NCBI GenBank assembly: GCA_003212795.1
Contig: QCOV01000001.1
Coordinates: 624,893-688,892, forward strand
DNA: 64,000 bases
Reading direction: 5' to 3'
Source of the DNA: OCS116 cluster bacterium AG-435-F03
Lineage (GTDB): Bacteria > Pseudomonadota > Alphaproteobacteria > MED-G09
In this document: piece after piece, positions 13,335 through 64,000 of the stretch
Numbering within the stretch: the first letter of the stretch is position 1
Layout: each line of letters starts with the position of its first letter
Notes under the pieces: model-generated
Databases searched by the model: none
Seen by the model: only the letters and a program-made list of their open reading frames with translations
What the model was told of the DNA's origin: nothing
Position numbers and translations under genes: made by a program

Positions 13335-13404
13335 TTTTCTAATGAATGTTTAAGTTTACCTTTATAAGTGATTAGTGTATTTAAAATTTATTTTAAACCT
13401 GAAT

Positions 13405-15644: not shown

Positions 15645-15659
15645 TTTGTCCTCACAATA

Positions 15660-16856: not shown

Positions 16857-16904
16857 AATATGCTTTTAACAAAATTAAACTAAAAATTCAAAAAATATAA
16901 AAAT

Positions 16905-17684: not shown

Positions 17685-17773
17685 TTATCGCCAATTTTAT
17701 CTAATAATTTTAACATTATAAACATAAGACCTATAGCAACAACTAGTCCTAAAAACGCCATAAAAAAACCCAT
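17682..17773 (-). CDS. candidate 30-aa hydrophobic micro-protein (MGFFMAFLGLVVAIGLMFIMLKLLDKIGDK)
   Basis: Fills the gap between the Fe-ADH stop and the SDR start. AAGGAT SD sits 6 nt upstream of its ATG, and its stop overlaps the SDR start (gatAAATGA). A single predicted TM helix. Short AT-rich ORFs are easily spurious. Confidence 0.3.
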
Positions 17774-17776
17774 AAT

Positions 17777-18919: not shown

Positions 18920-19840
18920 TTATTTGTCAGATATAAAATCGGCTATTGCATCAAGTGCTTCATTAGCTTCAGGTAAAAAAGGTGCATAACCATGAAAAAC
19001 ATGCACCATATCATCCCAAACTTCTAACTTAACGTCACAACCAGATGACTCTGCGCTTTCAGCAACTTTTTTTGAATCATCTAATAAAACTTCTCTTCCC
19101 CCTACTTGGATAAGCAAGGGTGGAAAGCCTTCATAATTACCATAGACAGGTGATGCATATGGATTTATTAGATCAGATTCATCTTTGATATAAAGATCCC
19201 GAAATGCTGCTATTGCATCCTTTGAAATATATGGATCAATATCTGCATTAGTATCATAAGTTTCAGAAACAGGATCTAATTCTGCCCATGGAGATAAAGG
19301 TATTACAGCATTTGGAAGCTCAGAGTTATCATCCTTCAAAGCCAATGTAACCCCTAAGGATAAGCCTCCACCAGCCGAATCTCCGGATATATAAGATTTA
19401 GTACATTTTCCACTACCATTTGGTCCATTATTTAACATCCACAAAAAAGCTTTTTTAGAGTCATTTACTCCATGAGGAAATTTTAATTCTGGTGCTAGTG
19501 AATAATCTATTAAAAGTATAGAACATCCAGTTTTTTCGGCAATTTGGCTAGTAAGAGAGAGGTAACCTCTTATAGTTCCAATTGCATAACCACCACCATG
19601 TAAATATAAAATTCTTTTATCAGGATCTGAGTTCTCAGCCATAACCCATTGACCATAAATACCATCAACATTAACTGGAGAAGCGCTGCCAGTAGGCCTA
19701 ATACTACTATCAGCATTAAAATAATCATCAACAGTATATCTAAAGTGCTTCATCCCAAGTCTTTCATCATCTAATGAAAAGAAAGTTTTAACCAATTCTT
19801 CCTGATGTTTAATAACTAATTTATTTTGCTCTGAACTCAT
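18920..19840 (-). CDS. alpha/beta-hydrolase esterase/lipase, hormone-sensitive-lipase (HSL) family
   Basis: 306 aa with oxyanion-hole motif HGGGY and nucleophile elbow GDSAGG; Asp/His of the triad lie near the C-terminus. Confidence 0.88.
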   Translation of the reverse strand: MSSEQNKLVIKHQEELVKTFFSLDDERLGMKHFRYTVDDYFNADSSIRPTGSASPVNVDGIYGQWVMAENSDPDKRILYLHGGGYAIGTIRGYLSLTSQIAEKTGCSILLIDYSLAPELKFPHGVNDSKKAFLWMLNNGPNGSGKCTKSYISGDSAGGGLSLGVTLALKDDNSELPNAVIPLSPWAELDPVSETYDTNADIDPYISKDAIAAFRDLYIKDESDLINPYASPVYGNYEGFPPLLIQVGGREVLLDDSKKVAESAESSGCDVKLEVWDDMVHVFHGYAPFLPEANEALDAIADFISDK

Positions 19841-19856
19841 TTAAGCCCCCTTTAAT

Positions 19857-20588
19857 TTATAAACTCATACCACCATCTGATGTGATCATTTGTCCAGTTA
19901 TATAACTAGCTCCATCACTACATAAAAAACATGCGAGCTCTCCCATATCTTCAGGAGTACCCCATCTTCCTAATGGTATTCTTTTAAGTGAGTCATCATA
20001 TCTTTTCTTATTTTTAAAAGTAACCTCAGTTAATTTAGTTGCAACAAATCCTGGAGCGATACCGTTAACTCTTATATTGTTTTCAGCCCAGGCCTCTGCA
20101 AGGGTTTTAATCAAAGTGAGTAATCCACCCTTTGATGCAGAATATGCTGGATTACCTTTTACAGAATGATAGCTAGCTCCAGATCCAATAATTATTATTG
20201 ACCCATTACTTTTAGATAATTTATCTTGAAAAAAAGAACATGAGGCCATTATAGAATTTAAATTTAAATCAACCACTTTCTTAAATGTATCCATTTCAAA
20301 TTCTTTTCTTTTATATGCTACGATACCTTGAGAACAAATTAAGTGATCTAAGTCATTAAACGGTAAATCTAAATTATTTAGATTATCATGATTAGAAAGA
20401 TCCAGTTTTTGATAATTACACTTTTCTATATTTTGAGAAATTCTTTCTTCATAATCTTCAATTGAGTCTCTTGTACCTGTAATACAAACATTCGCATTAT
20501 ATTTGATAAAGCTTTCAGCAATTCCTCTTCCAATTCCACTACTGCCACCTATAACTAAGATGTTTTTATTATCAAAACCTTGAGACAT
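19857..20588 (-). CDS. SDR family oxidoreductase
   Basis: 243 aa with VIGGSSGIGRG and YSASKGG. Confidence 0.85.
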   Translation of the reverse strand: MSQGFDNKNILVIGGSSGIGRGIAESFIKYNANVCITGTRDSIEDYEERISQNIEKCNYQKLDLSNHDNLNNLDLPFNDLDHLICSQGIVAYKRKEFEMDTFKKVVDLNLNSIMASCSFFQDKLSKSNGSIIIIGSGASYHSVKGNPAYSASKGGLLTLIKTLAEAWAENNIRVNGIAPGFVATKLTEVTFKNKKRYDDSLKRIPLGRWGTPEDMGELACFLCSDGASYITGQMITSDGGMSL

Positions 20589-21367
20589 TATGCTGAGTAA
20601 CCACCATCAACAGGGATAGATTGACCGCTTATATAACCAGCATTTTCTGATGCGAGAAAAACTACAGTATCAAATAACTCTTCTGGAGCGCCTGCTCTTC
20701 CAAGCGGGACTTGCTGCATCCATTGATCCAATATTCCACCAGGTGGAGAATCGATTTCTTGAGATAACCCTACAGCAATTAATCCAACAGCAACGCAATT
20801 TGCCCTTATGCCGTTATGACCTTCCTCTCTTGAAATTGCTGTACATAAATGTTGAACACCAGACTTAGGAACAGAAGATAAACCATCTGTGCTTATATAT
20901 TTATGAATAGCGGCTGTAGTTAACGCCGTAATTGATCCTCCTCCTCCTTCTTTTAAGACAGGAACAACAGATCTTAAAACATGATAAAATCCCTTAATAT
21001 CAGTATCTAAAGTTTTATAAACATCTTCTGGATTAGCATCCAATATAGGCATTATGTGAAGAAAAGGACCTGTAGCAAAAACTACAGAATGAATTCTACC
21101 AAATTCTTTCTGACTAGATTTAACGAAGCTTTCAACTTTTGATGCGTCCAAAAGATCTACACTAGACGAAAATCCTTTTTGACCATTTTCCTCAATTTTT
21201 GAAATATTTTCTTTTGCAGCTTCCTCATTATTTAAATATGTAAAAGCTACATCAGTTCCACATTTACTAAGAAGATCAACAATTCCGGAACCTAATCCAC
21301 CTGAACCACCGAATACAATAGCTGCACCATCAGAAAATCTATATTTTGTCATACCCAATTCCTCCAT
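20588..21367 (-). CDS. SDR family oxidoreductase
   Basis: 259 aa with VFGGSGGLGSG. One-nt overlap with the downstream SDR. Confidence 0.8.
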   Translation of the reverse strand: MEELGMTKYRFSDGAAIVFGGSGGLGSGIVDLLSKCGTDVAFTYLNNEEAAKENISKIEENGQKGFSSSVDLLDASKVESFVKSSQKEFGRIHSVVFATGPFLHIMPILDANPEDVYKTLDTDIKGFYHVLRSVVPVLKEGGGGSITALTTAAIHKYISTDGLSSVPKSGVQHLCTAISREEGHNGIRANCVAVGLIAVGLSQEIDSPPGGILDQWMQQVPLGRAGAPEELFDTVVFLASENAGYISGQSIPVDGGYSA

Positions 21368-21519
21368 AATTTATCAAAGCATATTAAACAAAAGCTTAAA
21401 AGATTTATTTAGTATAAATTTGCATAATAATAATTATAAAAAAAACTTTTATAAAACTTTCAATATTGCAAGAAATATTATGCATGCTATTCTGTTTTTG
21501 GTTTTAATGAGGCTTTTAA

Positions 21520-23127
21520 ATGACAAATAAAATTGATTGCGATGCTATTGTTGTTGGCGCTGGTTTTGCTGGACTAGCTTTAATTCATCACTTAAAAAAA
21601 ACAGGTATTTCTGTAAAAGTATTAGATAAAGCTTCTGAAATAGGAGGAACATGGGCATGGAATCGTTATCCAGGAGCAGCTACAGACAGTGAAGGATATT
21701 ACTATTGTTTGACCTTTTCCAAAGAAATTTTGCAAGAATGGACCTGGTCAGAGAGATATCCTGGTTGGGAAGAAACTAATAGATATCTTAATTTTGTAGC
21801 TGATAAATGTGATATGTGGCCTCATATTCAACTTGATACCGAAGTTATAAGTGCAGAATTCAATAAAGAGGATGGTTTATGGATTGTAAAGACCAAAAAT
21901 GATGAAGAGCTAGTTTGTAAATATTTTATAAGTGCTATGGGAATGATCTCTCAACCAGTTATTCCTAGTTTTGATGGAATAGAAAATTTTAATGGCCCAT
22001 GCTTTCATTCCTCAAGGTGGCCTCAAGAAGGTCTAGATTATGATGGAAAGAAAGTGGCTATTGTTGGGTGTGGTGCATCCACAGTACAAATGTTACCAAT
22101 AATGGCTCAGACAGCAGAAAATGTAACAGTTTTTCAGAGAACACCGAATTTTGTTCTACCCGCTATGCAGAAATCAATGACACCTGAATGGGAAAAAGAT
22201 ATCAAAGATAATTATGATGAAATAATCGATAAATGCAGGAACCATGTTTTTGGTATGGCTTTTGATAGCCCTGTAGGTCGTAATGCAGTTGATACGCCTG
22301 AAGACGAGAGAGAGAAAATATTTGAAGACAATTGGAATGGAAGTTTTAGATGGGTTTTTGAAACTTTTGATGATTTGTTAGTAGACCCTGCGGCAAATCA
22401 AATGGCGGCAGATTTTATTATAAAAAAAATGAAAGAAAAAATTAATGATCCTGAAATTGCAGAAATATTAACACCGAAAGGTTATCCTCTATTCGCCAAA
22501 AGACCACCATTAGATCATGGTTTTTATGAGGCATTTAATAGAGAGAATGTCCATCTTGTAGATATCAAAGACAGAGAGCCAATTTCAAAATTTACTGAAA
22601 AAGGAATTAATACAATAAAAAATGAATATGAATTTGATATCATAATTTTAGCTACAGGCTTTCAAGCGTATACAGGGGCTCTTGAAGCTTTTGATATTAT
22701 AGGTCAAAGCGGAAAATCTATTAGAGAAAAATGGGAGCTTGAGTCAAAATCAATTATGGGAGTATGTATTTCTGATTTCCCAAATTTATTTACAATAACA
22801 GGACCTCAAGCACCTTTTGCTAATCTTCCAACCTCTATAGAGCAAAATTGTTTATGGATTTCTGATTGCATAAATAAAATGGAAAAAGAAGGACACAAAA
22901 TTTGTCATCCTCTTTTAGAAGCAGAAGAAGAATGGTCAGCTCACGTTAAAGAAGTGCATGAACAAACTTTGATGAATGTTGGTGACAAAGTAAATTCTTG
23001 GATGATGGGAGCAAATATAGAAAATAGAAAATCCAGAGTATTAATTTATTTTGGAGGTGCTGGAGTATATTATGACAGATTAAGAGAGTCGGTTGATAAT
23101 GATTTTCCAGAACTGACATTTAGTTAA
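21520..23127 (+). CDS. Baeyer-Villiger monooxygenase (type I flavin monooxygenase, cyclohexanone-monooxygenase-like)
   Basis: 535 aa with FAD Rossmann motif VVGAGFAGL, the BVMO fingerprint FNGPCFHSSRWP (FxGxxxHxxxWP) and the NADPH Rossmann motif VGCGASTVQ. Confidence 0.9.
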   Translation: MTNKIDCDAIVVGAGFAGLALIHHLKKTGISVKVLDKASEIGGTWAWNRYPGAATDSEGYYYCLTFSKEILQEWTWSERYPGWEETNRYLNFVADKCDMWPHIQLDTEVISAEFNKEDGLWIVKTKNDEELVCKYFISAMGMISQPVIPSFDGIENFNGPCFHSSRWPQEGLDYDGKKVAIVGCGASTVQMLPIMAQTAENVTVFQRTPNFVLPAMQKSMTPEWEKDIKDNYDEIIDKCRNHVFGMAFDSPVGRNAVDTPEDEREKIFEDNWNGSFRWVFETFDDLLVDPAANQMAADFIIKKMKEKINDPEIAEILTPKGYPLFAKRPPLDHGFYEAFNRENVHLVDIKDREPISKFTEKGINTIKNEYEFDIIILATGFQAYTGALEAFDIIGQSGKSIREKWELESKSIMGVCISDFPNLFTITGPQAPFANLPTSIEQNCLWISDCINKMEKEGHKICHPLLEAEEEWSAHVKEVHEQTLMNVGDKVNSWMMGANIENRKSRVLIYFGGAGVYYDRLRESVDNDFPELTFS

Positions 23128-23134
23128 TTATATA

Positions 23135-24163
23135 TTAATTAACTATCAAATTATTGGAAAAATTTTCATATGCCAGTATTAATGCTGCTTTAATTCCTGA
23201 CGCATCTTTAATTTTTTTATTGGCCTCTTCTGAGGCGGCGTTTCCTGCTTTTACTCTATTCTCTATTCCTTTAAGTATGCAGTAAAGTTTTGTTAACGAA
23301 AATAAACAATAAATATTAAGAAGCTCAATATTAACCATTTTTCCAAACGATTCTTCATAAGATTTAAGAAATTCTGAAGCTGATGGAAGGTCGTATGAAC
23401 TCCACTCCTCACCGATTCCATATAAAACTCCCTTAGGTATTAACCAATTAATCATTTGAAAACTGAGATCAACCTCTGGTTCACCAAAGGCAGATAACTC
23501 CCAATCTAACACGGCTAAACAATTTGAGTCGTCTCCTATAACTAAATTATCTAATTTATAATCCCCATGAATTAAGCATAAGTTGTTATTTTCAGGAGTA
23601 TTTTTGATAATAAAATCATAAATTCTTGAAATGTCTTTATCATGATTATCATCATTAAAAATTTGGCTATACCAGATATTCAAATTTCTTATCATAAAAC
23701 CAGTGTTTTTCTTAAAAGGTATATCTAATTTATCGATATTGTAACTATGTAATCTACCAAGAGTTTTTGCTAAACTTTTGTAAATTTTTCTTCTTTCTTG
23801 AGAATTGTTATTTGGAAGAAAGGGATCTTCATAAATATGACCATCAATATATTGCATGATATAAAAATCTCTACCTATTATTGATTTATCTTCACAAAGT
23901 ATTAGAGGTTTTGGAACGCTAAATTCATTTTTACTAAGACCGGATAACACATGAAATTCTCTATCTAATCTGTGAGCACCTCTAACAAGTTCTCCCTTTG
24001 GTTGAGTTCTTAAAATAAATTTATCACCATTTTCATCTAATAAAATATAAGTTGGATTAGATTGACCATTACCTATTTTTTTAGGTAATTGATTTAATAA
24101 ATTGAATTGATGTTTTTTCAAAAAACCGTCAATTTTTTGGAATTCTTCTTCATCGATAAGCAT
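23135..24163 (-). CDS. phosphotransferase-family kinase (APH/choline-kinase-like fold)
   Basis: 342 aa with catalytic loop HGDYKLDNLV and DWE. The N-terminal nucleotide-binding lobe resembles the APH-like proteins associated with acyl-CoA dehydrogenases. Confidence 0.75.
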   Translation of the reverse strand: MLIDEEEFQKIDGFLKKHQFNLLNQLPKKIGNGQSNPTYILLDENGDKFILRTQPKGELVRGAHRLDREFHVLSGLSKNEFSVPKPLILCEDKSIIGRDFYIMQYIDGHIYEDPFLPNNNSQERRKIYKSLAKTLGRLHSYNIDKLDIPFKKNTGFMIRNLNIWYSQIFNDDNHDKDISRIYDFIIKNTPENNNLCLIHGDYKLDNLVIGDDSNCLAVLDWELSAFGEPEVDLSFQMINWLIPKGVLYGIGEEWSSYDLPSASEFLKSYEESFGKMVNIELLNIYCLFSLTKLYCILKGIENRVKAGNAASEEANKKIKDASGIKAALILAYENFSNNLIVN

Positions 24164-24165
24164 AA

Positions 24166-24618
24166 TTAAGAGTTAAGTGATTTTTTATATTGTTCCTCAA
24201 TATTATCAAAAATTAAACTATATAAAGACTCTAGAAGCTCAACTATTTCAGCTTCTGTGGCACCATCAGCAACAAAATGACTGCACCAAGTAATATCTGT
24301 TTCATTTGATGTGATTTCTCTAAGATTTACGCAAGCAACATAATTCAACATAGGTAAACATGATTTATCCACTATAGAGTAAGTCAAAGATAACCCCTCC
24401 TCATAGCCATCAAGCCTTTCAATAACCTCACCAGGATAAGGGTCCCCTAAATAGACCGCTCTTACATCTCCAATGCTATCAGAGAAAGTATCTGGTAATT
24501 TTACTTCAAGAATATTTTCAGGAAGTAAGGTTTTTATCTCTCCAAAGGCTCTTAGTCTGTCCCAAAAATATTGTTTAGGAACATTAACAATTCTCTGAAC
24601 TTTAGCTTCATTTGGCAT
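24166..24618 (-). CDS. conserved hypothetical ~150-aa protein, paralog A (possibly SRPBCC/Bet v1-like ligand-binding fold)
   Basis: About 45% identical by eye to the 26980-27429 product; shared blocks KRIV.VPK.YFW.RLRAF, GEVIERLDG, IDKSCLP. The fold assignment is a guess. Confidence 0.6.
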   Translation of the reverse strand: MPNEAKVQRIVNVPKQYFWDRLRAFGEIKTLLPENILEVKLPDTFSDSIGDVRAVYLGDPYPGEVIERLDGYEEGLSLTYSIVDKSCLPMLNYVACVNLREITSNETDITWCSHFVADGATEAEIVELLESLYSLIFDNIEEQYKKSLNS

Positions 24619-24648
24619 GGGTTTCTCCTAAACTAATGCTAGTTATTA

Positions 24649-26877
24649 TCAAAATGTTTGAGTAATACTTATGCCCCATGTTCTAGGCTTTCTTGCCATC
24701 CCATATGTCCATGCTGCACCAGCAAAAACATCATAACCAACAGTAAATCCATCCTCTTCAGTTATATTCTTAGCAAAGAAAGCAAAAACTGTATTATTAA
24801 ACTCATAATTCATTGATAAATCTATTAATGTTTGTTCTTTGTTGAATGTTGTTGGAGAGTTTAGCTGAGAAGTATGATGTTCACCAATATGGTGAGCGCT
24901 TGCTCTTACATAGGCTAAACCTGGACCAGCTTCCCATTCATAAGTTAAACCAAGTGTCCAAGTTAAATCTGGGGCTCTTAGAGGTTCTAAATATGTAAAA
25001 TCAGCAGGTGTTCCACTTCCTGTAAAATCAGCAAAAAATTCATCATAACTTGCATCTAAATAACCAACATTTAGGTCAACTGAAAAATTTTGATTTATAA
25101 TTGCATAAAGCTCTAACTCAATACCTTTAAATGAAGCCTCAGCAACATTATCAGTCACAGTAGCTCTTCCTATAGCGGCAAGTGTATCAGGAATATCAAC
25201 ATCCAGTTGCTTATCTTCATACTCCATGTCAAAAATTGCTAAATTAAATCTTAGTCTGTTATCAAGAAGAGTAGATTTAAGGCCAGCTTCTATATTGGTT
25301 ACAGTTTCTGGTTTATATGGCCTAACAGCACTAAATTCATTTCCCCATCTACCATTAAATCCACCACTTCGATAACCTTGAGAGTAACTTAAATAGTATA
25401 ATAAATCATCATTAGCTTGATAGCTAACAGCTACTTTTGGTGTAAATTTAGTCCAATTTTTATCAGCATAAGTATTTATAGCGCTACAATCTGGATATGG
25501 TCCAGGGCCCTGACAAGCATTACTACTTTTTTCTTCATCAATATATCTTCCGCCAACAGTGAGGGTGATTTGTTCATTTATGTCATAATCAGCCTCAAAA
25601 AATACAGCAATACTATCGGTTTCTTGATGCGTATAATTATAAATAGGAACAACTATCAAAGGGTCTTGGGTTGGCACAGCGCCAAATAAATCAAAAAATC
25701 CAATTCTACTTTCCATTGGTATTGTGTATTCGGAGTCCCATTTATAAAGTCCTACAACATAATTTAATGGGCCTTCTAAATCACTAGTAAGTCTAATTTC
25801 ATGACTTGTTTGTTCATACTCAGCATTACGGTCAGTATGATACAGTGTTAGGGGTGTTCCATCCCAATCTTGATCTACCTCTTCATCAGTAGTTTTTCTT
25901 CCCAAAATATAATCTAATTTGTATTTATCAGATAATTGCCATCTTACTTCAAGAATACCTGTAAAACTCTCAAATGAAGCATCTCGTCTTTTTGGTTCGT
26001 TATTGTATACTTTGTAACGATCACCACTTTGAGGAATTCCTAATCCAGGTGAACATTGACCATAAACTGCACACCACCATGTGGTTGATCCGCCAAGATT
26101 TAATGCTGTGTGAGCATCTTGATCTTGCTGCTCATCTGTTAAAGTTAATTCAATTTCTACATTGTCATTAACTGTAAATAGAGAATTAAAGGTAATTTGA
26201 GTGTATTCTTCTCTTCCAAGATCTTTGTTATCTACCAAATTAGTTAAATAGCCTTCAGCTTGCTCTCTATGTGTTCCAGTTATCTTAAAGGCTGCATTAG
26301 GAGTTCCAAAGTTTAGTATACCATCTACGATAGTTGTATCGTAATCGCCATAACCAACTTTGAGTTTTCCTCCAACTTCACCAGTAGGTTTTGTTCTCGT
26401 TAAATTTATTACGCCAGCAACAGTATTTCTTCCAAACAATGTTCCTTGTGGACCTCTTAATATTTCAACACTTTCTAAATCAATAGTTTTAAGCATTGCG
26501 CCAGAATTTGCTCCAACAAATACACCGTCTAAAACAACCCCTGTTGTTGGATCAAAATTTTTCTCCACATCTGAAACACCCACACCTCTGATGAATATTG
26601 CTGTTGGACTTCCTGGTCCCTGTTGAAGATCATCAATTATTAAATTTGGAGACTCACCTGCCAAATCTCTTATATCAGAAGGAAACCTATTCTCAATATC
26701 TCTTGCGCTTAAAGCGCTTACAGAAAGAGCTGTTTCTTGAATGTTCTCTTCCTTTTTACGTGCAGTAACAACAATTTCTTCTATACCTTCAGAGCTTTGA
26801 GCGAAAGATATTGAAGTATATATTGCAGATACAAATATAAAACATGAAATAGCAAAAAAGTTAAAAATAGATCTCAT
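24649..26877 (-). CDS. TonB-dependent outer-membrane receptor
   Basis: Signal peptide MRSIFNFFAISCFIFVSAIYTSISFA, TonB box EEIVVTARK, plug domain, long beta-barrel region and C-terminal Phe. The track ORF begins at a TTG 19 codons upstream; an ATG at 26877 preceded by a G-rich SD is more plausible. Confidence 0.88.
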   Translation of the reverse strand: MRSIFNFFAISCFIFVSAIYTSISFAQSSEGIEEIVVTARKKEENIQETALSVSALSARDIENRFPSDIRDLAGESPNLIIDDLQQGPGSPTAIFIRGVGVSDVEKNFDPTTGVVLDGVFVGANSGAMLKTIDLESVEILRGPQGTLFGRNTVAGVINLTRTKPTGEVGGKLKVGYGDYDTTIVDGILNFGTPNAAFKITGTHREQAEGYLTNLVDNKDLGREEYTQITFNSLFTVNDNVEIELTLTDEQQDQDAHTALNLGGSTTWWCAVYGQCSPGLGIPQSGDRYKVYNNEPKRRDASFESFTGILEVRWQLSDKYKLDYILGRKTTDEEVDQDWDGTPLTLYHTDRNAEYEQTSHEIRLTSDLEGPLNYVVGLYKWDSEYTIPMESRIGFFDLFGAVPTQDPLIVVPIYNYTHQETDSIAVFFEADYDINEQITLTVGGRYIDEEKSSNACQGPGPYPDCSAINTYADKNWTKFTPKVAVSYQANDDLLYYLSYSQGYRSGGFNGRWGNEFSAVRPYKPETVTNIEAGLKSTLLDNRLRFNLAIFDMEYEDKQLDVDIPDTLAAIGRATVTDNVAEASFKGIELELYAIINQNFSVDLNVGYLDASYDEFFADFTGSGTPADFTYLEPLRAPDLTWTLGLTYEWEAGPGLAYVRASAHHIGEHHTSQLNSPTTFNKEQTLIDLSMNYEFNNTVFAFFAKNITEEDGFTVGYDVFAGAAWTYGMARKPRTWGISITQTF

Positions 26878-26979
26878 AATTACCCCCCCAATTGATTTAA
26901 ATATTATGATAGTTGAATAAATGTTTTTTTTCAATAAATTAACAAATTAATGATTTAAATTTTAAGTTAATTAAATATC

Positions 26980-27429
26980 TTAATTACCATCAGAAAATTG
27001 TTTTTCCATGTTGTCACAAATAAGATTATAATTAAACTTAAACATGCTGACTGTTTCTTCTTTATCCTTGTCTTTAGCTTTAAAGTGACCATACCAATCA
27101 ACTTCTGTAAAATCTTGATTTGTGTTTTTAATGCTTACCGTCGAAACATAATTTTCAACAGGTAAACATGATTTATCAATAACGGAATAAGTCATGTATT
27201 TTTCTTCAATCAATCCGTCTAACCTTTCTATAACTTCACCTTGGTAAACTTTTTCAAGATAAACATACCTTACATCACCTGGTGAATTAGAAAAATTATC
27301 TGGAATTTTTACTTCTTTAATCGTTCTAGGTAGAAGCGTTTGAATTTTATCGAAAGCCCTTAATCGCTTCCAAAAATATAATTTTGGTACTTTTACTATT
27401 CTTTTAACATGCGACTGTAAAAATAACAT
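26980..27429 (-). CDS. conserved hypothetical ~150-aa protein, paralog B
   Basis: Paralog of the 24166-24618 product; see that entry. Confidence 0.6.
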   Translation of the reverse strand: MLFLQSHVKRIVKVPKLYFWKRLRAFDKIQTLLPRTIKEVKIPDNFSNSPGDVRYVYLEKVYQGEVIERLDGLIEEKYMTYSVIDKSCLPVENYVSTVSIKNTNQDFTEVDWYGHFKAKDKDKEETVSMFKFNYNLICDNMEKQFSDGN

Positions 27430-27434
27430 TAAAT

Positions 27435-27911
27435 TTACCTTAAAAGAGATCTATAGTTACTACCCCAAAAAACAAGAGGATAACCTTCAATTATTTTTGA
27501 ATCATTAACATCAGCTATCAAAATTGAGTGATCACCAGAATCGATTATTTGATTTTTTGAACAAGATAGCCAACCTATAGAATTCTTTATAACTAAACCC
27601 TGATCAATGGAAATAAACTGATCTTCGTCCAAAATATGATCATTTTTTTGCGCAAGAGTGTTTGCTATATCTCTTTGTTCTTCAGAAAGAAAATTAATTA
27701 TGTAATTATCTAAATTTGTTATTTCTTCATACAAATCTGAATCTTTATCTAAGCACCATAGAATCAAAGGTGGATCTAGTGATAATGAGGTATATGAATT
27801 TACTGTTATACCAAGATTTAAACCATTGGAACCTTTAAAGGTAACTGCTGTTACCCCAGTAGCAAACTTACTAAAAATACTTCTGAGGTCTTTATTTGCT
27901 TCATCAAGCAT
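27435..27911 (-). CDS. flavin reductase-like (FMN-binding split-barrel, HpaC/NADH:flavin oxidoreductase-like)
   Basis: 158 aa. FATGVTAVTFKGSNGLNLGITVNSYTSLSLDPPLILWCL is typical of flavin_reduct-domain proteins. Confidence 0.75.
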   Translation of the reverse strand: MLDEANKDLRSIFSKFATGVTAVTFKGSNGLNLGITVNSYTSLSLDPPLILWCLDKDSDLYEEITNLDNYIINFLSEEQRDIANTLAQKNDHILDEDQFISIDQGLVIKNSIGWLSCSKNQIIDSGDHSILIADVNDSKIIEGYPLVFWGSNYRSLLR

Positions 27912-27915: not shown

Positions 27916-29175
27916 TTATCTAATAATAACTGGAAGGTGAGAAAAACCTTTTACAAAGCTCGATCTGATTCTAATTGGTTCACCAACAACTTCTATGTTT
28001 TCAAATCTTTTCATTATTTCTTCCCACAGAATTTCTAACTGCATATCAGCTAATCTATTTCCTACACATCTATGAATTCCAAAACCATATGATAAATGGC
28101 TTCTTGGTCTTTTCCTATCAATTATAAAGCTGTTTGGGTTTTCAATTACATCTTCATCTCTGTTTCCTGACACATACCACATTACTACTTTGTCACCTTT
28201 TCTAATTAGTTTTCCTCCCAATTCATAATCTTCAAGAGCAGTTCTTCTCATGTAAGCCAGTGGTGTTTGCCATCTAATGATTTCAGGAACCATAGTTTTA
28301 ATTAAAGAATGATCTTTTCTTAATTTATCATATTGATCAGGATTTTGATTTAAGACCAAAATGCCTCCTGTCATAGAATTTCTTGTTGTATCATTACCTC
28401 CAACTATAAGTAGAATTAAATTACCTAGATACTCCATTGGATCCATATCACGTGTGCTAGGGTTGTGAGCCAGCATAGAAATTAAGTCAGTTTTAGGTTC
28501 AGAGTTAACTCTTTCATTCCATAGTTTAGTAAAATATTGAAGACATTCAAATAACTCTTCTTTTCTTTGCTCTTCTGTTTCAACTATTCCATCGCCAGGT
28601 CTAGCAGTAGAAACATCTGACCATCTTGTTAATTTCATTCTATCTTCAAAAGGAAAATCAAATAAAGTAGCTAGCATTCTTGTTGTTAATTCAATGGAGA
28701 CATCCTCTACCCAATTAAATTCTTTATTTATTGGAAGGTTATCTAAAACCTCGGCTGTTCTCTCTCTAATAAGGTCTTCCATATTAGCAAGATTACTGGG
28801 AGCAACTACAGGATTAACAGCTTTTCTTTGTATATCATGCTTAGGTGGGTCCATCGCAATAAACATAGGTGTAGTGAAATCTTCTTGAGGATCAAATAAA
28901 GTTATAGCTCCTTCTGATGAAAAAACTTTATGATTGGTATCCACACTCATTATATCTTTGTATTTAGTAATTGACCAATAAGGCCCTACATCCTCAACAC
29001 ATGATTCAGCACAATAATGAACTGGGTCCTCTTTTCTTAATCTTTCAAATAATGGAAAAATTGCATCTCCATACATAAAGATGTCAGAGTTTGCCATATC
29101 AATTTTTTCTATGGGTATTGAATAAGGATCCATTTCTGGACTCCAAACATCTGGACGAAGAAGTTCTTTAAGCAT
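27916..29175 (-). CDS. cytochrome P450, CYP153-like (alkane/alkyl hydroxylase family)
   Basis: 419 aa with heme loop FGFGIHRCVGNRLADMQLEILWEE and the N-terminal region EDPVHYCAES...GPYWSITKYKDIMSVDTNHKVFSSE, both matching CYP153 signatures as I remember them. The 3' end overlaps the upstream gene by 8 nt. Confidence 0.8.
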   Translation of the reverse strand: MLKELLRPDVWSPEMDPYSIPIEKIDMANSDIFMYGDAIFPLFERLRKEDPVHYCAESCVEDVGPYWSITKYKDIMSVDTNHKVFSSEGAITLFDPQEDFTTPMFIAMDPPKHDIQRKAVNPVVAPSNLANMEDLIRERTAEVLDNLPINKEFNWVEDVSIELTTRMLATLFDFPFEDRMKLTRWSDVSTARPGDGIVETEEQRKEELFECLQYFTKLWNERVNSEPKTDLISMLAHNPSTRDMDPMEYLGNLILLIVGGNDTTRNSMTGGILVLNQNPDQYDKLRKDHSLIKTMVPEIIRWQTPLAYMRRTALEDYELGGKLIRKGDKVVMWYVSGNRDEDVIENPNSFIIDRKRPRSHLSYGFGIHRCVGNRLADMQLEILWEEIMKRFENIEVVGEPIRIRSSFVKGFSHLPVIIR

Positions 29176-31480
29176 TATTTATAATCCCCCATACTTTTTG
29201 TGCTGTAATTGGCATATTTAGTTTCTTTGTATCAAAACCCTCTAAAGCATTTATGATTGCATTTACATAAGCAGTTGTTGAGGCAACAGTTCCAGCTTCA
29301 CCACAACCTTTAGCTCCCAATAAATTTGTTTTACACTCTGCCTCTTCATTAAAATCAATATTAAAATCAGGAAAATCATCAGCTCTTGGCATTTGATAAT
29401 CCATATAAGAACCATTTAAAAGTTGGCCAGTTTCCTCTTCATATATAGCATGTTCACACATTGCTTGACCTAAACCCTGAACGATACCTCCATGAACTTG
29501 GCCCGCAACTAAAAGAGGATTAATAATTTTTCCAAAATCGTCTGTCGCATGATAATCTATGATATCTATATTTCCTGTATCTTTATCTACCTCTACCTCA
29601 CAAATGTGGCAACCATTTGGATATGTCGGATCTTTATGTTCGTATGAACTAGCACCATCAAGCATTTGAGTATTAGATTGATTTTCTGCAATTTTAGCTA
29701 TTGAAAATAAGTCAATATTTCTGTTAGTGCCTTGTACTTGAAAAAGAGGACCAGATTCAGTTGAATACTCTATTTCGTCTATAGAAGCCTCTAATTCTGC
29801 AGCAGCAATTTCAATTCCCTTTTTCAAAACATCATCTGATGCCTCATTAATGGCACCAGCAGCAAAATACAACGATTTTGATCCACCAGTTCCACCTCCG
29901 CTTGGCAAGTCTTCACTATCACCAAAATGAATAGATACATCTTCAGGGTTAACACCTAATTTTTCAACAACAATTTGTGTCCATGCAGTCTCATGGCCTT
30001 GGCCTGTAGCCATTGTGCCGGTGTAAACATTTACCTTACCCTCACTTGAAACAATTATTCTAGAGTCTTCAGAGCCCTCTCCTTGAGTTCTCTCAACATA
30101 ATATGATACACCGATACCGCGAAGTTTATTTTCATCTATAGATTTTTTTTGTCTTTTTTCGAAATCTTCAAAAGATGAATTTAGCAGTGTCATGTTAGTA
30201 GTTTTATTAAAATCACAACTATCAAAAGGAATAACCGGGTCTGCAGTATTTCCTAAATCAGAAGGTTGAACATAATTCAATTTTCTAATTTCTATTTGTC
30301 CAAGAGACATATCGCGGGCTGCTTGATCAACCAATCTCTCAATAACATAACTTGCTTCAGGTCTACCCGCTCCTCTATAAGCATCAATAGGAACAGTATT
30401 TGTATATACAACTTTTACATTATTAACCATTACAGGAATATTATATACTCCAACATGCATTCCCGCAGCTGCAAGAGTAGGAATAAAAATACCATATTGG
30501 GATAAATAAGCTCCTACAGAAGCTGTTGTCTCCACCTTTACACCAAGAAATTTTCCTTCTTTATCTAAAGCTAAATATGCATCGGTGACATGGTCTCTAC
30601 CTTGTGCATCACTTAAAAAAGACTCTGATCTTGTTGCAGTCCATTTAACAGGTCTTGATAAAATTTTACTAGCATGCATTACAGCTATATATTCAGGAAA
30701 ACACATCATTTTTAAGCCAAATCCACCGCCTACATCTTTTGTAATAACTTGAATATCTTCTTCTTTAATATTAAGCGTATTAGCAAGCCTTTCTCTCATA
30801 GCATGAGGGCCTTGGCTTTCAACATGCATTTTAAATTTTCCATCAGTTTTATTAAATATTGATACTGCAGATCTTGGTTCGATAGGATTAACGACAATCC
30901 TATTATTAATAAGATGAACATGAGAAACATGATGTGCATCTGACTCAACTTTTTTCCATTCCTCATCCGAACCTAAACCCCAATCAACTGCACAATTAGA
31001 CTCAAATTCATCAAATAACTTAGGTGAGTCATTTTCAAGAGCTTTGGCGGTGTCAGAGTTACATGGTAACTCTTCATAATCCACTATTACATTATCAGCA
31101 GCATCGAGAGCTAAATTAACAGTTTCAGCTAGTATGAAAACAACAGGATCTCCGACATGTCTTACCCTATCTGACGCCAATATAGGTCTTTTACTAGCAT
31201 TCATAGGTGATCCATCTTTATTTTGGAGAAAATCAATTACCGACATATGTGTTATACCTGCCTCAGTGAAGGAATCATTTGTAAAAATATCAATTACACC
31301 TGGCATTTTACGAGCACTCTCAACATCAATGTTTAAAATTTTTGCATGAGAATAAGGTGATCTAACAAAAACACCATGGCACATATCTTCAAATTTTATA
31401 TCATCCGTATAATTACCTTCTCCTGTAATTAAACGCGTATCTTCAATCCTAGTAACAGGCTGTCCTACAGCAAACTTCAT
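29168..31480 (-). CDS. xanthine dehydrogenase/aldehyde oxidase/CoxL-family molybdopterin-binding large subunit
   Basis: 770 aa. N-terminus MKFAVGQPVTRIEDTRLITGEGNYTDDI...HGVFVRSPYSHAKI is characteristic of Mo-hydroxylase large subunits, and the Mo-cofactor-binding domains are present throughout. Confidence 0.88.
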   Translation of the reverse strand: MKFAVGQPVTRIEDTRLITGEGNYTDDIKFEDMCHGVFVRSPYSHAKILNIDVESARKMPGVIDIFTNDSFTEAGITHMSVIDFLQNKDGSPMNASKRPILASDRVRHVGDPVVFILAETVNLALDAADNVIVDYEELPCNSDTAKALENDSPKLFDEFESNCAVDWGLGSDEEWKKVESDAHHVSHVHLINNRIVVNPIEPRSAVSIFNKTDGKFKMHVESQGPHAMRERLANTLNIKEEDIQVITKDVGGGFGLKMMCFPEYIAVMHASKILSRPVKWTATRSESFLSDAQGRDHVTDAYLALDKEGKFLGVKVETTASVGAYLSQYGIFIPTLAAAGMHVGVYNIPVMVNNVKVVYTNTVPIDAYRGAGRPEASYVIERLVDQAARDMSLGQIEIRKLNYVQPSDLGNTADPVIPFDSCDFNKTTNMTLLNSSFEDFEKRQKKSIDENKLRGIGVSYYVERTQGEGSEDSRIIVSSEGKVNVYTGTMATGQGHETAWTQIVVEKLGVNPEDVSIHFGDSEDLPSGGGTGGSKSLYFAAGAINEASDDVLKKGIEIAAAELEASIDEIEYSTESGPLFQVQGTNRNIDLFSIAKIAENQSNTQMLDGASSYEHKDPTYPNGCHICEVEVDKDTGNIDIIDYHATDDFGKIINPLLVAGQVHGGIVQGLGQAMCEHAIYEEETGQLLNGSYMDYQMPRADDFPDFNIDFNEEAECKTNLLGAKGCGEAGTVASTTAYVNAIINALEGFDTKKLNMPITAQKVWGIINNA

Positions 31481-31492: not shown

Positions 31493-32248
31493 TTAATTTT
31501 TATAACTGGGGTCAATTTTATCTAATTTCCTTAAAAGACCAGGCCACGCAAGTTGGCCTATTCCATCATCAGATGCCATTTGACCTTGTTCAGTAACTAA
31601 TTCAATAACATCAGTTGGAACTTGATTAAGTTTTAAACCACCAGTTAAGGCTTTAATTTGCATGGTGCAGGCTCTTTCAAGAAAAAATAAACGAAGCCAT
31701 GCATCTCCACAAGTAGCACCTGTTGTTAACAAACCATGATTTTTTAAAATTAAACAATGCTTATCCCCAAGATCATTAATCAATCTCTCTCTTTCATCTA
31801 AATTAAGAGCGATACCTTCATAATCATGATATGCACAATCATTTCTTATAACCATTGCATGTTGACTTATAGGCATAAGACCATCTTCTTGTGCCGCAAC
31901 AGCCACTCCATCATTTGAATGCGTATGAATTACAGCATGATTATTTGTTCCTGAGGAATGAACTGCTGAATGAATAGTGAAACCAGCAGCATTAACATTA
32001 TAATTTGTTTCAGAAACCTTATTTCCATCAAGATCAATTTTGACCAGATCAGATGCACAAATTTCGTCAAATAATAAACCATATGGATTAAGTAAGAAGT
32101 GTTCAGGTTCTGAGGGAACACGAACAGATATATGGGTAAAAACAAGATCATCCCAACCATATAAAGCTACTAACCTATATAAAGCTGCAAGCTCTACTCT
32201 TGCGCTCCATTCCTCTTCACTTACTGATTCTCTAATTTGTTTATTCAT
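31493..32248 (-). CDS. class II aldolase/adducin-domain protein
   Basis: 251 aa with metal-binding His cluster (HTHSNDGVAVAAQ...HAMVIRND). Size and pattern fit the FucA/AraD fold. Confidence 0.65.
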   Translation of the reverse strand: MNKQIRESVSEEEWSARVELAALYRLVALYGWDDLVFTHISVRVPSEPEHFLLNPYGLLFDEICASDLVKIDLDGNKVSETNYNVNAAGFTIHSAVHSSGTNNHAVIHTHSNDGVAVAAQEDGLMPISQHAMVIRNDCAYHDYEGIALNLDERERLINDLGDKHCLILKNHGLLTTGATCGDAWLRLFFLERACTMQIKALTGGLKLNQVPTDVIELVTEQGQMASDDGIGQLAWPGLLRKLDKIDPSYKN

Positions 32249-32295: not shown

Positions 32296-33771
32296 TTAGA
32301 CATTGATGATTTTATTTATTGCTTTATTCCAATTTTTTATTATTTCTTCTCTTGTTTGATTTTCCATTTGTGGCAGAAATTCCTTATTTTTATATAAATT
32401 AACATTAAATTCTTTTAAATCATTAATTTCTTGAGAGCCAAGAGCTGATAATGAAGCCGCGCCCAATGCAGTCGCTTCTTGTTCATTTGATTTACTTATT
32501 TTTATGTCACAAATATCAGAGAGATTCTGCATAAACCAGTCATTTTCTGTCATACCTCCATCAACTCTGATACTATTAAGGGGGTTCTCAAATAATTTTT
32601 TAGTATCCTCATTTATGGCATTCATAAGATCATACGTTTGTAAAGAAATAGACTGAACTGATGAGGCTATTATCTCATTTTTGTTGGAATCACGCGTTAA
32701 ACCTGAAATAGTTGCCCGACTATTTGGTTGCCAATGTGGTGCACCTAAACCAGTAAAAGCAGGTACCATTACAATCTCACTATTAATGGAAGTATTTTTA
32801 AGTATATCTTCTAATTCATTAATATTATCAAATACTTGTAGATTATTCTTTAACCAATCTATAATAGCACCAGCCATGAAAATAGAACCCTCAAGAGCAT
32901 AAGCTATCTCTCCATTAATTTTATATGCTACGGTCGATAAAAGGCCATTTTTAGAATATGCAATATTTTTACCTGTATTTAATAAAACAAAGCATCCAGT
33001 ACCATAAGTTGACTTAATATCTCCAAAATTAAAGCATTTTTGTCCAATTGCAGCTGATTGTTGATCTCCTATAACACCATAAATTGGTAATTTCTTTATG
33101 AGAGCCTCTGATTGTCCATAAAAAGCATCAGATTCCAGAACTTCCGGAAGTATTGATTTATTCACTTGAAAAAGATTCAATAAATCATCATCCCATTTTA
33201 ATTCTTCAATATTAAAAAGATTTGTTCTAGCTGCATTTGTAATATCAGTAGCAAAAACTTTACCTTTTGTAAGATGCCAAATAATCCATGAATCTATTGT
33301 TCCTGCACATACTCTATCTTGATTTATGCTTTCTTTAACGCCATCAACATTATTTATTATCCAGGATATCTTAGTTGATGAAAAATACGGGTCTAATAAT
33401 AATCCTGTTTTATTGATAATTAATTCTTCGTAGCCTTTTTCTTTTAAATCTCTACATAAACTCTCTGTTCTTCTGTCTTGCCATACTATTGCGTTATATA
33501 AAGATTTACCGGTTTGTTTATCCCATACAACTACAGTTTCTCTTTGATTAGTAATACCAATTGAACAAATATTATGATTAGGATTATTTTCTATAATTTC
33601 ATTACAACAACTTATAACAGTTCCAATAATCTCTTCGGGATTATGCTCAACCCAACCATTATTAGGGAATACTTGTTCAAAAGATTTCTGACTAGAATCA
33701 ACTTTTTTTCCGTTTAAGTCAAAAAGCATTACTTTTGTAGATGTGGTACCTTGGTCAATTATAAGAAACAT
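32296..33771 (-). CDS. glpK: glycerol kinase (FGGY family)
   Basis: 491 aa colinear with GlpK over its whole length (IIDQGTTSTKVMLFD, GITNQRETVVVWDKQTGKSLYNAIVWQDRRT, TYGTGCF, PAFTGLGAPHW, VDGGMT). Confidence 0.88.
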   Translation of the reverse strand: MFLIIDQGTTSTKVMLFDLNGKKVDSSQKSFEQVFPNNGWVEHNPEEIIGTVISCCNEIIENNPNHNICSIGITNQRETVVVWDKQTGKSLYNAIVWQDRRTESLCRDLKEKGYEELIINKTGLLLDPYFSSTKISWIINNVDGVKESINQDRVCAGTIDSWIIWHLTKGKVFATDITNAARTNLFNIEELKWDDDLLNLFQVNKSILPEVLESDAFYGQSEALIKKLPIYGVIGDQQSAAIGQKCFNFGDIKSTYGTGCFVLLNTGKNIAYSKNGLLSTVAYKINGEIAYALEGSIFMAGAIIDWLKNNLQVFDNINELEDILKNTSINSEIVMVPAFTGLGAPHWQPNSRATISGLTRDSNKNEIIASSVQSISLQTYDLMNAINEDTKKLFENPLNSIRVDGGMTENDWFMQNLSDICDIKISKSNEQEATALGAASLSALGSQEINDLKEFNVNLYKNKEFLPQMENQTREEIIKNWNKAINKIINV

Positions 33772-62728: not shown

Positions 62729-63580
62729 ATGAAATTTGAGGGAACTAAAGATTACATTGCTACTGAGGATTTAAGAATTGCAGTAAATGCTTCAATAAGT
62801 CTTGAGAGACCTTTACTCGTAAAAGGTGAGCCCGGAACAGGTAAAACTGTTCTTGCTGAAGAAATAGCAAGAGCTCTAGATATGCCAATTTTAACATGGC
62901 ATATAAAATCGACAACAAAAGCTCAACAAGGCCTTTATGAGTATGATGCTATAACAAGACTAAGGGATTCACAGCTTGGAGATGAAAAAGTTAAAGATGT
63001 TAAGAATTACATAAAAAAAGGAAAACTATGGGAAGCCTTTGAGTCTGAGAAACGCCCTATCCTTTTAATTGATGAAATTGATAAAGCTGATATCGAGTTT
63101 CCTAATGATTTACTTCAAGAATTAGATAGAATGGAATTCTATGTTTACGAAACAGGAGAAACAATCGCAGCTGAAAAAAGACCTGTTGTTATAATCACTT
63201 CTAATAATGAAAAAGAATTGCCGGATGCTTTCCTAAGAAGATGCTTCTTTCACTACATAAGTTTTCCTGATAATGACACAATGCAAAAGATTGTTGATGT
63301 ACACTATCCAGATATCAAATCAAAATTGGTATCTGAATCTTTGAAAGTTTTTTATGAGTTAAGGGAAATTCCTGGTCTTAAGAAAAAACCATCTACATCT
63401 GAGTTATTAGATTGGCTAAAGTTGCTTATGAATGAAGATATAACCCCTGAAATGTTAAGAGAAAAGAACTCTAATAATATAATTCCACCCTTGCATGGTG
63501 CACTTCTTAAAAATGAACAGGATGTTCACTTATTCGAAAGATTGGCGTTCTTAGCTAGAAGAGAAGATAATCAAAATTAA
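62729..63580 (+). CDS. MoxR-family AAA+ ATPase (CoxD-like)
   Basis: 283 aa with Walker A GEPGTGKT and Walker B ILLIDEIDKA. Confidence 0.88.
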   Translation: MKFEGTKDYIATEDLRIAVNASISLERPLLVKGEPGTGKTVLAEEIARALDMPILTWHIKSTTKAQQGLYEYDAITRLRDSQLGDEKVKDVKNYIKKGKLWEAFESEKRPILLIDEIDKADIEFPNDLLQELDRMEFYVYETGETIAAEKRPVVIITSNNEKELPDAFLRRCFFHYISFPDNDTMQKIVDVHYPDIKSKLVSESLKVFYELREIPGLKKKPSTSELLDWLKLLMNEDITPEMLREKNSNNIIPPLHGALLKNEQDVHLFERLAFLARREDNQN

Positions 63581-63582: not shown

Positions 63583-64000
63583 ATGTTTATTAATTTTTTT
63601 CAAGAACTCAAACAAGCCAATATTCCAGTCACATTAAGAGAATACCTCACTCTTATTGAAGCTCTAAATGCAGATATTCCTCAAAGAAAAGTTGAAGACT
63701 TTTATTATTTATCGAGATCTACTTTAGTTAAGGATGAAAAGAACTTAGATAAATTTGATAGAGTCTTTGGTAATGTATTTAAGGGATTAGAGAACATTGA
63801 AGAAATAGAAACTGCAGAAATTCCTGAAGAATGGTTGCAACTTCTTAATGAAAAATACCTTACTGAAGAAGAAAAAAAACAAATCGAAGCCATGGGCGGA
63901 TGGGAAAAGCTTATGGAAGAATTAAAAAAACGTTTAGAAGAGCAAGAAAAAAGACATGAAGGTGGATCAAAATGGATTGGTACAGCTGGAACTTCTCCAT
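63583..64000 (+). CDS. VWA-domain CoxE-like protein, N-terminal part; gene continues off the window edge
   Basis: Starts 3 nt after the MoxR stop. ...GGSKWIGTAGTSP is typical of the N-terminal region of CoxE-like VWA partners of MoxR ATPases. Confidence 0.7.
   Translation, partial: MFINFFQELKQANIPVTLREYLTLIEALNADIPQRKVEDFYYLSRSTLVKDEKNLDKFDRVFGNVFKGLENIEEIETAEIPEEWLQLLNEKYLTEEEKKQIEAMGGWEKLMEELKKRLEEQEKRHEGGSKWIGTAGTSP

Follow-up and report, generated by a model that had tools for sequence, protein, structure and literature searches.

A form II CoxL-type molybdenum hydroxylase subunit encoded apart from small and medium subunit genes in a marine alphaproteobacterium

A 64,000-nucleotide stretch of the genome of OCS116 cluster bacterium AG-435-F03 (the window) was analyzed for the gene context of a large molybdenum cofactor-binding subunit of the xanthine dehydrogenase family, termed L in the following; S and M denote the corresponding small and medium subunits. 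The gene for L lies in a tightly packed run of same-strand genes that spans positions 34940-23135 and is headed by a second cytochrome P450 gene (Table 1). A strong Shine-Dalgarno sequence (AGGAG) is located 6 nt 5' of the L start codon, and the ATG of the downstream P450 gene falls within the final codons of L (...ATAAATAATGCTTAAAG...). A gap of 4 nt separates this P450 gene from the flavin reductase-like gene. The arrangement of an L gene that overlaps a CYP153-like P450 gene by 8 nt and is followed by a flavin reductase-like gene had been noticed in an earlier sequence-only reading and was verified by open reading frame analysis and by Pfam and PDB comparisons. The P450 is a true CYP153, with full-length similarity to characterized CYP153 enzymes (3rwl, which is CYP153A7, E 5e-178 over residues 19-416; 7ant, E 3e-182; 6hqg, E about 1e-180). 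Ferredoxin reductase (FdR) and [2Fe-2S] ferredoxin (Fdx) are the usual partners of CYP153 enzymes. In contrast to CYP153 alkane omega-hydroxylase operons (Fdx-CYP153-FdR), neither gene is found adjacent to this close CYP153 homolog, but an FdR and [2Fe-2S] ferredoxin gene pair is present just past the end of the window, about 34 kb from CYP153.

Table 1. Features of the L locus and of the AAA+/VWA gene pair in the window
Feature	Positions	Strand	Size	Basis or remark
Second P450	33774..34940	-	388 aa	First gene of the same-strand run
FGGY kinase (GlpK)	32296..33771	-	491 aa	TIGR01311, 619.9 bits vs cut-off 590
Class II aldolase/adducin-family protein	31493..32248	-	251 aa	Pfam, NCBIfam PRK07044
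Large Mo-cofactor-binding subunit (L), xanthine dehydrogenase family	29168..31480	-	770 aa	Pfam, PDB alignments
Overlap of L stop and CYP153 start, ATGCTTAA	29168..29175	-	8 nt	Sequence
CYP153-family P450	27916..29175	-	419 aa	Pfam p450; PDB CYP153A7
Flavin reductase-like protein	27435..27911	-	158 aa	Pfam Flavin_Reduct PF01613
SRPBCC-family protein	26980..27429	-	149 aa	NCBI name of identical protein; no Pfam match
AAA+ ATPase	62729..63580	+	283 aa	AAA_5/AAA; MoxR-like in generic sense only
Putative VWA protein, N-terminal part	63583..64000	+	139 codons of 393 aa	Weak VWA_CoxE match of the full-length copy in identical-protein contigs

The L protein contains the Ald_Xan_dh_C, MoCoBD_1 and MoCoBD_2 domains (E 1.6e-28, 2.3e-64 and 1.5e-71, each exceeding its gathering score), which is the domain set of the Mo-binding large subunit of xanthine oxidases and dehydrogenases. 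Alignment to PDB entries 7dqx, 8uem and 4zoh verified that the Mo-site residues are intact. Q223 (the Gln near Mo=O), G251-GGFG-255, the active-site loop A367-Y-R-G-A-G-R373 including R369, and the catalytic E728 line up with the PDB homologs and are invariant across the clade alignment. The dN/dS ratio of 0.03-0.04, obtained against three relatives, indicates purifying selection. L looks like an intact subunit of a form II CoxL-type Mo hydroxylase and is predicted to be functional. The AYRGAGR loop is the form II CoxL signature and is found in the coxSLM-encoded putative CO dehydrogenases (CODHs) of Aminobacter carboxidus (PMC7645674). L shares this loop and the three-domain large subunit with these form II systems, whose function is likewise putative. 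However, the contiguous coxS-coxL-coxM order is absent here; L stands alone between the class II aldolase and CYP153 genes, and the candidate S and M genes occur in a separate cluster, described below. Form I CODHs (Oligotropha and Mycobacterium CoxL; 1n5w, 8uem) belong to the same fold family (phmmer 310-376 bits), but their AYXCSFR loop with the Cu-ligand Cys (AYACSFR in 8uem) is replaced by AYRGAGR in L, and no coxDEF genes are adjacent. L also misses the equivalog cut-offs of the CODH models TIGR02416 and NF040766 (432.6 vs 991 and 495.8 vs 950 bits). Its best NCBIfam model is NF041018, the alpha subunit of archaeal glyceraldehyde oxidoreductase/dehydrogenase, yet its 578.8 bits fall short of the 790 set as equivalog cut-off. 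Its best PDB match is the KdhL-type 6-hydroxypseudooxynicotine dehydrogenase 7dqx (379 bits). The systems represented by NF041018/4zoh and 7dqx are heterotrimeric S/M/L Mo hydroxylases acting on aldehydes or N-heterocycles, and L is most likely an aldehyde or heterocycle oxidoreductase and not a CO dehydrogenase. The layout of the L gene is unusual; the enzyme itself is probably ordinary.

The conserved neighbors of L are the class II aldolase and GlpK genes and not the P450 gene. The aldolase gene is the most conserved neighbor of the L clade (seen at 17 different related loci with L identities as low as 43%), and the GlpK gene, whose product passes its equivalog cut-off, keeps its synteny with L in relatives. 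A search beside orphan L genes for an alternative conserved redox partner revealed none, and only an EamA transporter gene (one clade) and TetR/SDR genes (Parvibaculum clade) were found. The location of the catalytic L gene in a run with conserved aldolase and GlpK genes, together with a GlcD-like gene in relatives, provides a hint of a small hydroxy-aldehyde substrate instead of CO.

Xanthine dehydrogenase family enzymes normally have their [2Fe-2S] and FAD subunits encoded alongside, and the sequence-only reading had found neither within the 64 kb. This absence was confirmed by three approaches: a six-frame regular expression search of the whole window for both [2Fe-2S] motifs, a Pfam search for CoxS and CoxM of every window open reading frame of at least 100 aa, and searches of all six-frame open reading frames of at least 50 aa with HMMs derived from canonical S and M sequences. 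A CinA-like MoCF_biosynth protein (positions 50313-51065) was considered as a molybdenum cofactor gene product and rejected, as it matches NMN-deamidase-related CinA models. The orphan state of L is a property of its clade and not peculiar to the window. Among the 80 closest genome loci, about 53 have no S or M gene within 10 kb of L, and the approximately 27 loci with canonical S-L-M order fall into a single clade at 39-42% identity that is separate from orphan L. Literature searches on orphan coxL, on coxL in Parvibaculales, on CODH in the PS1 clade and on IMCC14465 yielded nothing useful. Two relatives do carry an orphan-clade L beside S and M genes. At one locus (L025), an S-M pair that lacks an L of its own lies 2.7 kb from an orphan-clade L gene, and an Emcibacter locus (L091) has the gene order CoxG-S-L1-M-L2 ... 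MocA-XdhC-L3, in which L2 and L3 belong to the orphan radiation; L3 and the Parvibaculum aldolase-clade L share 50% identity.

Low-GC S-M pairs without L were located by a metagenome scan with an AT-rich CoxS motif. All 30 of the low-GC marine alphaproteobacterial loci that were looked up, some of them on contigs of 1.3-1.49 Mb, showed the order CoxG-S(153 aa)-M(265-266 aa)-XdhC-MocA with no L gene within 10 kb. The SRPBCC proteins of the L operon were also considered as CoxG candidates but were rejected, since they lack the COXG Pfam match that the true CoxG of this module has. For whole S-M loci of at least 10 kb, the GC-normalized tetranucleotide correlation to the window was 0.93-0.95, compared with 0.92-0.97 for true same-clade loci and 0.57-0.89 for other low-GC marine loci, ranges that overlap in part when 10-kb pieces are used. 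One S variant (MBN44626.1) comes from a MAG labeled '[Rhodobiaceae bacterium]', an NCBI label shared with the MAGs whose L proteins are 96% and 93% identical to that of the window. Tetranucleotide similarity and the family label are weak links between L and the S-M module. In addition, L and the detached M obtained their best scores with the alpha and beta models of the three-subunit glyceraldehyde dehydrogenase, both below the cut-offs. The 1.3-1.49 Mb contigs that carry the S variant P0303 come from a population related to, but distinct from, that of the window, and the exact window proteins reach no contig longer than 791,894 bp. The variant P0307 is present in the MAG PBNH01 and not in PBRS01 or PBXC01, two MAGs known to carry L, and P0507 is found on metagenome contigs only. 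Tara scaffolds of 284,923 bp (L) and 285,347 bp (S-M) represent different genome segments. Comparison of the P0303, P0307 and P0507 contigs and the Tara scaffolds found no contig, MAG or genome with both an orphan L and an L-less S-M pair.

The sequence-only reading had offered three explanations for the missing genes: distant partners, a non-canonical electron acceptor or a non-redox role. The first is favored by the L-less S-M module in the same low-GC marine group and by the orphan-clade L genes beside S and M in the two relatives, and the other two are not sustained. It is likely that the S and M partners of L are encoded in trans, elsewhere in the genome, as an L-less partner and maturation cluster. 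We infer that the L locus and an S-M module reside in one genome and encode the parts of a single enzyme. L, which would bind molybdopterin cytosine dinucleotide, would assemble with the [2Fe-2S] small and FAD medium subunits supplied by the separate CoxG-CoxS-CoxM-XdhC-MocA cluster, which would also provide the cofactor-insertion chaperone and the cytidylyltransferase, and electrons would pass from Mo via two [2Fe-2S] clusters to FAD and on to an acceptor. The L gene itself has probably stayed in an old syntenic block of NAD kinase, GlpK, class II aldolase and L genes; in the marine low-GC lineage, a CYP153 gene, a flavin reductase gene and further genes for the oxidation of hydrocarbons and lipids were probably acquired on the downstream side of this block.

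Alternatively, a canonical coxSLM-type operon at another site in the genome could lend its S and M to L, with the L-less module belonging to other organisms or to another L. Sharing of this kind is suggested by the single S-M set beside three L paralogs in Emcibacter, and low-GC marine S-L-M operons are plentiful (52 of 120 scan loci), some with tetranucleotide correlations of 0.82-0.87. Yet an L-less module with XdhC and MocA needs an L from elsewhere, and this module shares the family label and is closer to the window in composition than the S-L-M loci are, which makes borrowing from a complete operon rather unlikely.

The non-canonical acceptor idea takes its strongest form in an L that lacks Fe-S and FAD subunits altogether and passes its Mo electrons to the flavin reductase-like protein or to the CYP153 heme, so that aldehyde oxidation drives hydroxylation. 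The tight L-CYP153-Flavin_Reduct order, with its overlap and short gap and no Fdx or FdR gene next to CYP153, suits this idea, and the trio is retained in marine relatives. It is, however, confined to the marine clade at L identities of at least 71%, and the 8-nt overlap is conserved only in relatives of at least 90% identity (L011, L012 and L234); the 71% clade (L005) has a 66-nt gap at this point. In Parvibaculum-type relatives (51-53% identity) and other members of the aldolase clade, L is followed by TetR, MFS or YaaD genes with no P450, and near L of the Parvibaculum-type relatives both the CYP153 and the flavin reductase genes are absent. In the clade of at least 90% identity, the overlap would allow L and the P450 to be co-translated, but it is unremarkable in the window because 7 of 40 same-strand gene pairs overlap there, with a median gap of 17 nt. 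We know of no enzyme of the xanthine oxidase family that functions without both [2Fe-2S] clusters, and genes for FdR and Fdx, the normal CYP153 partners, are present just beyond the window end. As the proposal rests on a P450 and flavin reductase link that is limited to one lineage, it is unsupported and very improbable.

Just as improbable is an L that acts alone, either as a Mo enzyme of one subunit that uses a direct oxidant (O2 or quinone) or in a non-redox or pseudo-enzyme role. The approximately 53 related loci without nearby S or M genes would fit such a protein, but the conserved Mo site and the strong purifying selection contradict a pseudo-enzyme. Furthermore, at the 335 alignment columns that hardly vary within the S-L-M clade, L agrees with the clade in 65% of cases, compared with 43% identity overall, and the lineage has kept the XdhC and MocA maturation genes in a cluster without its own L. 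Least probable of all is the recruitment of L into a CYP153 operon, where the Mo enzyme would oxidize the aldehyde downstream of alkane hydroxylation and return the electrons to the P450; if true, L, P450 and flavin reductase-like protein would constitute a P450 system driven by a Mo hydroxylase, independent of NAD(P)H and of the usual Fdx/FdR.

CoxD, CoxE and CoxF mature the Cu site borne by the form I AYXCSFR loop. The AAA+/VWA gene pair 31 kb from L had been linked to CoxD and CoxE, an assignment that is not supported. The ATPase is generic and reached no CoxD-type model (its best NCBIfam match is the MadB family, 113 bits vs a cut-off of 475), the VWA_CoxE match of its neighbor is weak, and L is without a Cu-binding loop. 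Rather than accompanying a form I (Cu) CoxL gene in a cox cluster, the pair is situated between dksA and the FdR and Fdx genes in the order dksA-AAA-VWA-FdR-Fdx.

Marine bacteria contain an abundance of form II CoxL-type enzymes, which frequently receive a CO dehydrogenase annotation. In the lineage described here, the catalytic subunit sits in a putative catabolic run (kinase, aldolase, L and CYP153), with the electron-transfer and maturation genes forming a separate L-less module. A coxL-like gene without adjacent coxS and coxM should therefore not be read as a sign of a new mechanism or of a pseudo-enzyme. The lineage is very abundant, with identical proteins on metagenome contigs that number from hundreds to over 1000.

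The sequence-only reading had described an orphan CoxL-type large subunit gene that overlaps a P450 gene and is followed by a flavin reductase-like gene. This arrangement was borne out by the ORFs, by Pfam and by the 8 nt (ATGCTTAA) that are both the last of the large-subunit ORF and the first of the CYP153 ORF. The reported lack of partner genes also held: no CoxS-type [2Fe-2S] small subunit (S) was found in the 64 kb by six-frame motif regex, Pfam (all ORFs from 100 aa upward) or HMM, and no CoxM-type FAD medium subunit (M) by Pfam (same ORFs) or HMM. Both HMMs were built from canonical relatives and run on every six-frame ORF down to 50 aa. The window has a low GC content (0.33) and is the same sequence as positions 3618-67617 of CACEGK010000002.1 (assembly GCA_902559135.1). 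Proteins identical to those of the window are named "Hyphomicrobiales bacterium" or "Alphaproteobacteria bacterium" at NCBI, and among species-representative genomes the closest are NP944 and RS626, two marine "Rhodobiaceae bacterium" MAGs whose large subunits are 96% and 93% identical. Placement as a Parvibaculum-related marine alphaproteobacterium would be compatible with the synteny to Parvibaculum-type genomes.

Coordinates of the features discussed, in window positions
Feature	Position	Strand	Basis or setting
Acyl-CoA synthetase	10162-11892		
Third P450	11961-13334		
NMO	14658-15644		
Rieske oxygenase	15660-16856		
Fe-ADH	17777-18919		
Esterase	18920-19840		
Baeyer-Villiger/FMO-type monooxygenase	21520-23127		
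SRPBCC protein	26980-27429		after Flavin_Reduct ORF
Flavin_Reduct protein	27435-27911		Pfam; downstream of CYP153 ORF
CYP153 P450	27916-29175	-	close homologue of CYP153A7, E 5e-178
Large Mo-binding subunit, 770 aa	29168-31480	-	three xanthine-dehydrogenase-family Mo-subunit domains (Pfam)
AAA+ ATPase	62729-63580	+	general AAA models
Start of next gene	63583	+	

Relatives of the large subunit were collected by scanning one genome per GTDB species, which yielded 80 loci at 38-96% identity. About 27 are canonical, with CoxS directly upstream and CoxM directly downstream (Pfam and HMM), and group in a single clade (39-42% identity to the window protein) in a rough NJ tree. Both S and M are absent within 10 kb in about 53 of the 80 loci, among them Parvibaculum, Xanthobacteraceae, Kordiimonadales, Bauldia, Mesorhizobium, Aquibium and others; the orphan state is therefore a broad, old trait of this family branch and not peculiar to the window. 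One Bradyrhizobiaceae MAG carries two tandem orphan-type genes (L073, 9992-14706), with S and M absent within 10 kb.

A conserved block (NUDIX-like, NAD kinase, (MoaA), GlpK, (GlcD-like FAD oxidase), class II aldolase, large subunit) is present in Parvibaculum-type genomes (51-53% identity) and extends to Acetobacteraceae, Rhizomicrobium and other MAGs at 43-47%; the aldolase lies directly upstream of the large subunit in 17 distinct related loci. In Parvibaculum-type genomes (L002-L004, L008-L010), MoaA is divergent and adjoins GlpK about 4-5 kb upstream, and the GlcD-like gene lies between GlpK and the aldolase; the window lineage has neither at this position. A MoCF_biosynth-domain protein of the window (50313-51065) was rejected as a Moco biosynthesis gene, as it is CinA/NMN-deamidase-related. 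Downstream of the large subunit, TetR, MFS or YaaD genes follow in Parvibaculum-type genomes. The order large subunit-CYP153-flavin reductase was found only in marine low-GC relatives (71-96% identity), and the 8-nt overlap only at 90% identity or above, with a 66-nt gap in the 71% clade. This distribution marks the P450 linkage as a recent, lineage-specific juxtaposition. The overlap itself is not special, since 7 of 40 same-strand gene pairs in this compact genome overlap (median gap 17 nt).

Alignment to solved structures and within a nine-sequence clade set revealed intact Mo-site residues (Gln223 in esQgPH, GGGFG 251-255, Glu728 in GxGEAG) and a conserved active-site loop, A367-YRGAGR-373. 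Together with a dN/dS of 0.03-0.04 against three relatives, this makes a pseudo-enzyme, or the non-redox role suggested earlier, very unlikely as judged from sequence. AYRGAGR is the published "form II" CoxL signature, whereas form I CO dehydrogenases have an AYXCSFR loop and flanking coxDEFGHI genes (PMC7645674). The window loop aligns opposite AYACSFR of the Mycobacterium CODH 8uem, which argues that the protein would not be a Cu-Mo CO dehydrogenase. It scores far below the cut-offs of the NCBIfam CODH models; the best-scoring model is that for the alpha subunit of glyceraldehyde dehydrogenase (578.8 bits, cut-off 790). Within the form II CoxL-type Mo hydroxylases the gene is an uncharacterised, new member, in a detached organisation common among Alphaproteobacteria.

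In form I enzymes, CoxD, CoxE and CoxF assemble the Cu-S-Mo site. The AAA+ gene and the start of the gene behind it are real ORFs, but the proposed CoxD/CoxE link of this pair was not sustained. Among NCBIfam models the ATPase scores best with the MadB family (113 bits, cut-off 475), it reaches no CoxD-type curated model, its closest PDB matches are weak and to Midasin, and the Cu-S-Mo-site loop is absent from the window large subunit. On contigs with an identical AAA protein the order is dksA, AAA, a 393-aa protein with a weak VWA_CoxE match, an 84-aa ORF, ferredoxin reductase and [2Fe-2S] ferredoxin; nothing ties the pair to the large subunit. The reductase (Pyr_redox_2) has 342 aa and the ferredoxin (Fer2) 106 aa; both are encoded past the window's right end, 1.4-2.8 kb beyond the AAA gene (L244-L246, 12291-13641). 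For the window's three P450s, which all lack a ferredoxin or ferredoxin reductase gene next to them, they are likely the class I redox partners.

Candidate partners came from metagenome contigs scanned for QCGFCTPGM, an invariant motif of CoxS, in AT-rich codons. Among 120 low-GC matches, seven S-M pairs lacked a large subunit gene (L123, L138, L154, L172, L179, L167, L134). MBN44626.1, named "carbon monoxide dehydrogenase [Rhodobiaceae bacterium]", belongs to the S cluster of L123 and L138, as do variants on 1.3-1.49 Mb contigs. All 30 context loci (three S variants) read CoxG, CoxS (153 aa), CoxM (265-266 aa), XdhC and a MocA-type cytidylyltransferase, with no large-subunit-type gene within 10 kb. 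Such a module, with electron-transfer subunits, a Moco-insertion chaperone and an MCD-forming enzyme, needs a large subunit from elsewhere, and the orphan is its obvious counterpart. XdhC is encoded there by two ORFs, XdhC_CoxI (104-108 aa) and XdhC_C (239 aa), which overlap by 8 nt or lie 4 nt apart (L214-L233, L247-L256; for example L215, 11262-12300). The split recurs in nearly every locus reaching XdhC, in each of the three lineages looked up and whether the reads were short or long, so the gene is apparently truly split and not misassembled.

That module and orphan belong to the same organisms is indicated indirectly. The module and the nearest orphans have the MAG label "Rhodobiaceae bacterium" in common. 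GC-normalised tetranucleotide correlation with the window was 0.93-0.95 for whole S-M loci of at least 10 kb, 0.92-0.97 for known same-clade loci and 0.57-0.89 for other low-GC marine contigs, classes whose ranges overlap partly when 10-kb pieces are used. M falls into identity tiers (98, 87, 83-85 and 73-77%) that resemble those of the large subunit (93, 84-86 and 71-74%). In none of the contigs and MAGs looked up were orphan and module found together. Elsewhere, an S-M pair without its own large subunit lies 2.7 kb from an orphan-clade gene (L025). Emcibacter (L091) has the order CoxG-S-L1-M-L2 ... MocA-XdhC-L3, where L1 belongs to the canonical clade and L2 and L3 to the orphan radiation, L3 being 50% identical to a Parvibaculum aldolase-clade protein. 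The earlier suggestion that the partners are encoded far away is favoured by the L-less modules, the common label and the matching composition: S and M are probably encoded in trans, most likely in a separate CoxG-S-M-XdhC-MocA module with whose subunits the orphan would assemble. Borrowing of S and M from a canonical S-L-M operon is improbable, and the more exotic readings, such as a non-canonical acceptor, are disfavoured by the lineage-specific P450 link and the intact enzyme.

With regard to function, the best model matches are aldehyde-oxidising three-subunit enzymes. The genes conserved beside the large subunit encode a class II (fuculose-phosphate-type) aldolase and a kinase for a sugar or glycerol; relatives also have a GlcD-like 2-hydroxyacid oxidase there. 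A small hydroxy-aldehyde released by the aldolase (glyceraldehyde, glycolaldehyde or lactaldehyde) would therefore fit as substrate. Fatty aldehydes may be an alternative, since in the marine lineage the gene heads a run in which genes for oxidising hydrocarbons and lipids abound, including three P450s, a Baeyer-Villiger-type monooxygenase (BVMO), an esterase, SDRs, Fe-ADH, a Rieske oxygenase and an acyl-CoA synthetase. P450, SDR, BVMO and esterase form the classic subterminal alkane/ketone oxidation set. Oxidation genes, SDRs among them, are dense at 11961-24163. The segment at 20588-26934 (TonB receptor, SRPBCC, APH kinase, BVMO, SDR) varies between strains (compared with L234, L011 and L012); it is absent in the P0123-variant strain (L234), and NP944 lacks the receptor. 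RS626 matches the window at 98-99% identity in receptor, SRPBCC and APH and at only 81-93% in the flanking genes, which suggests recent exchange.
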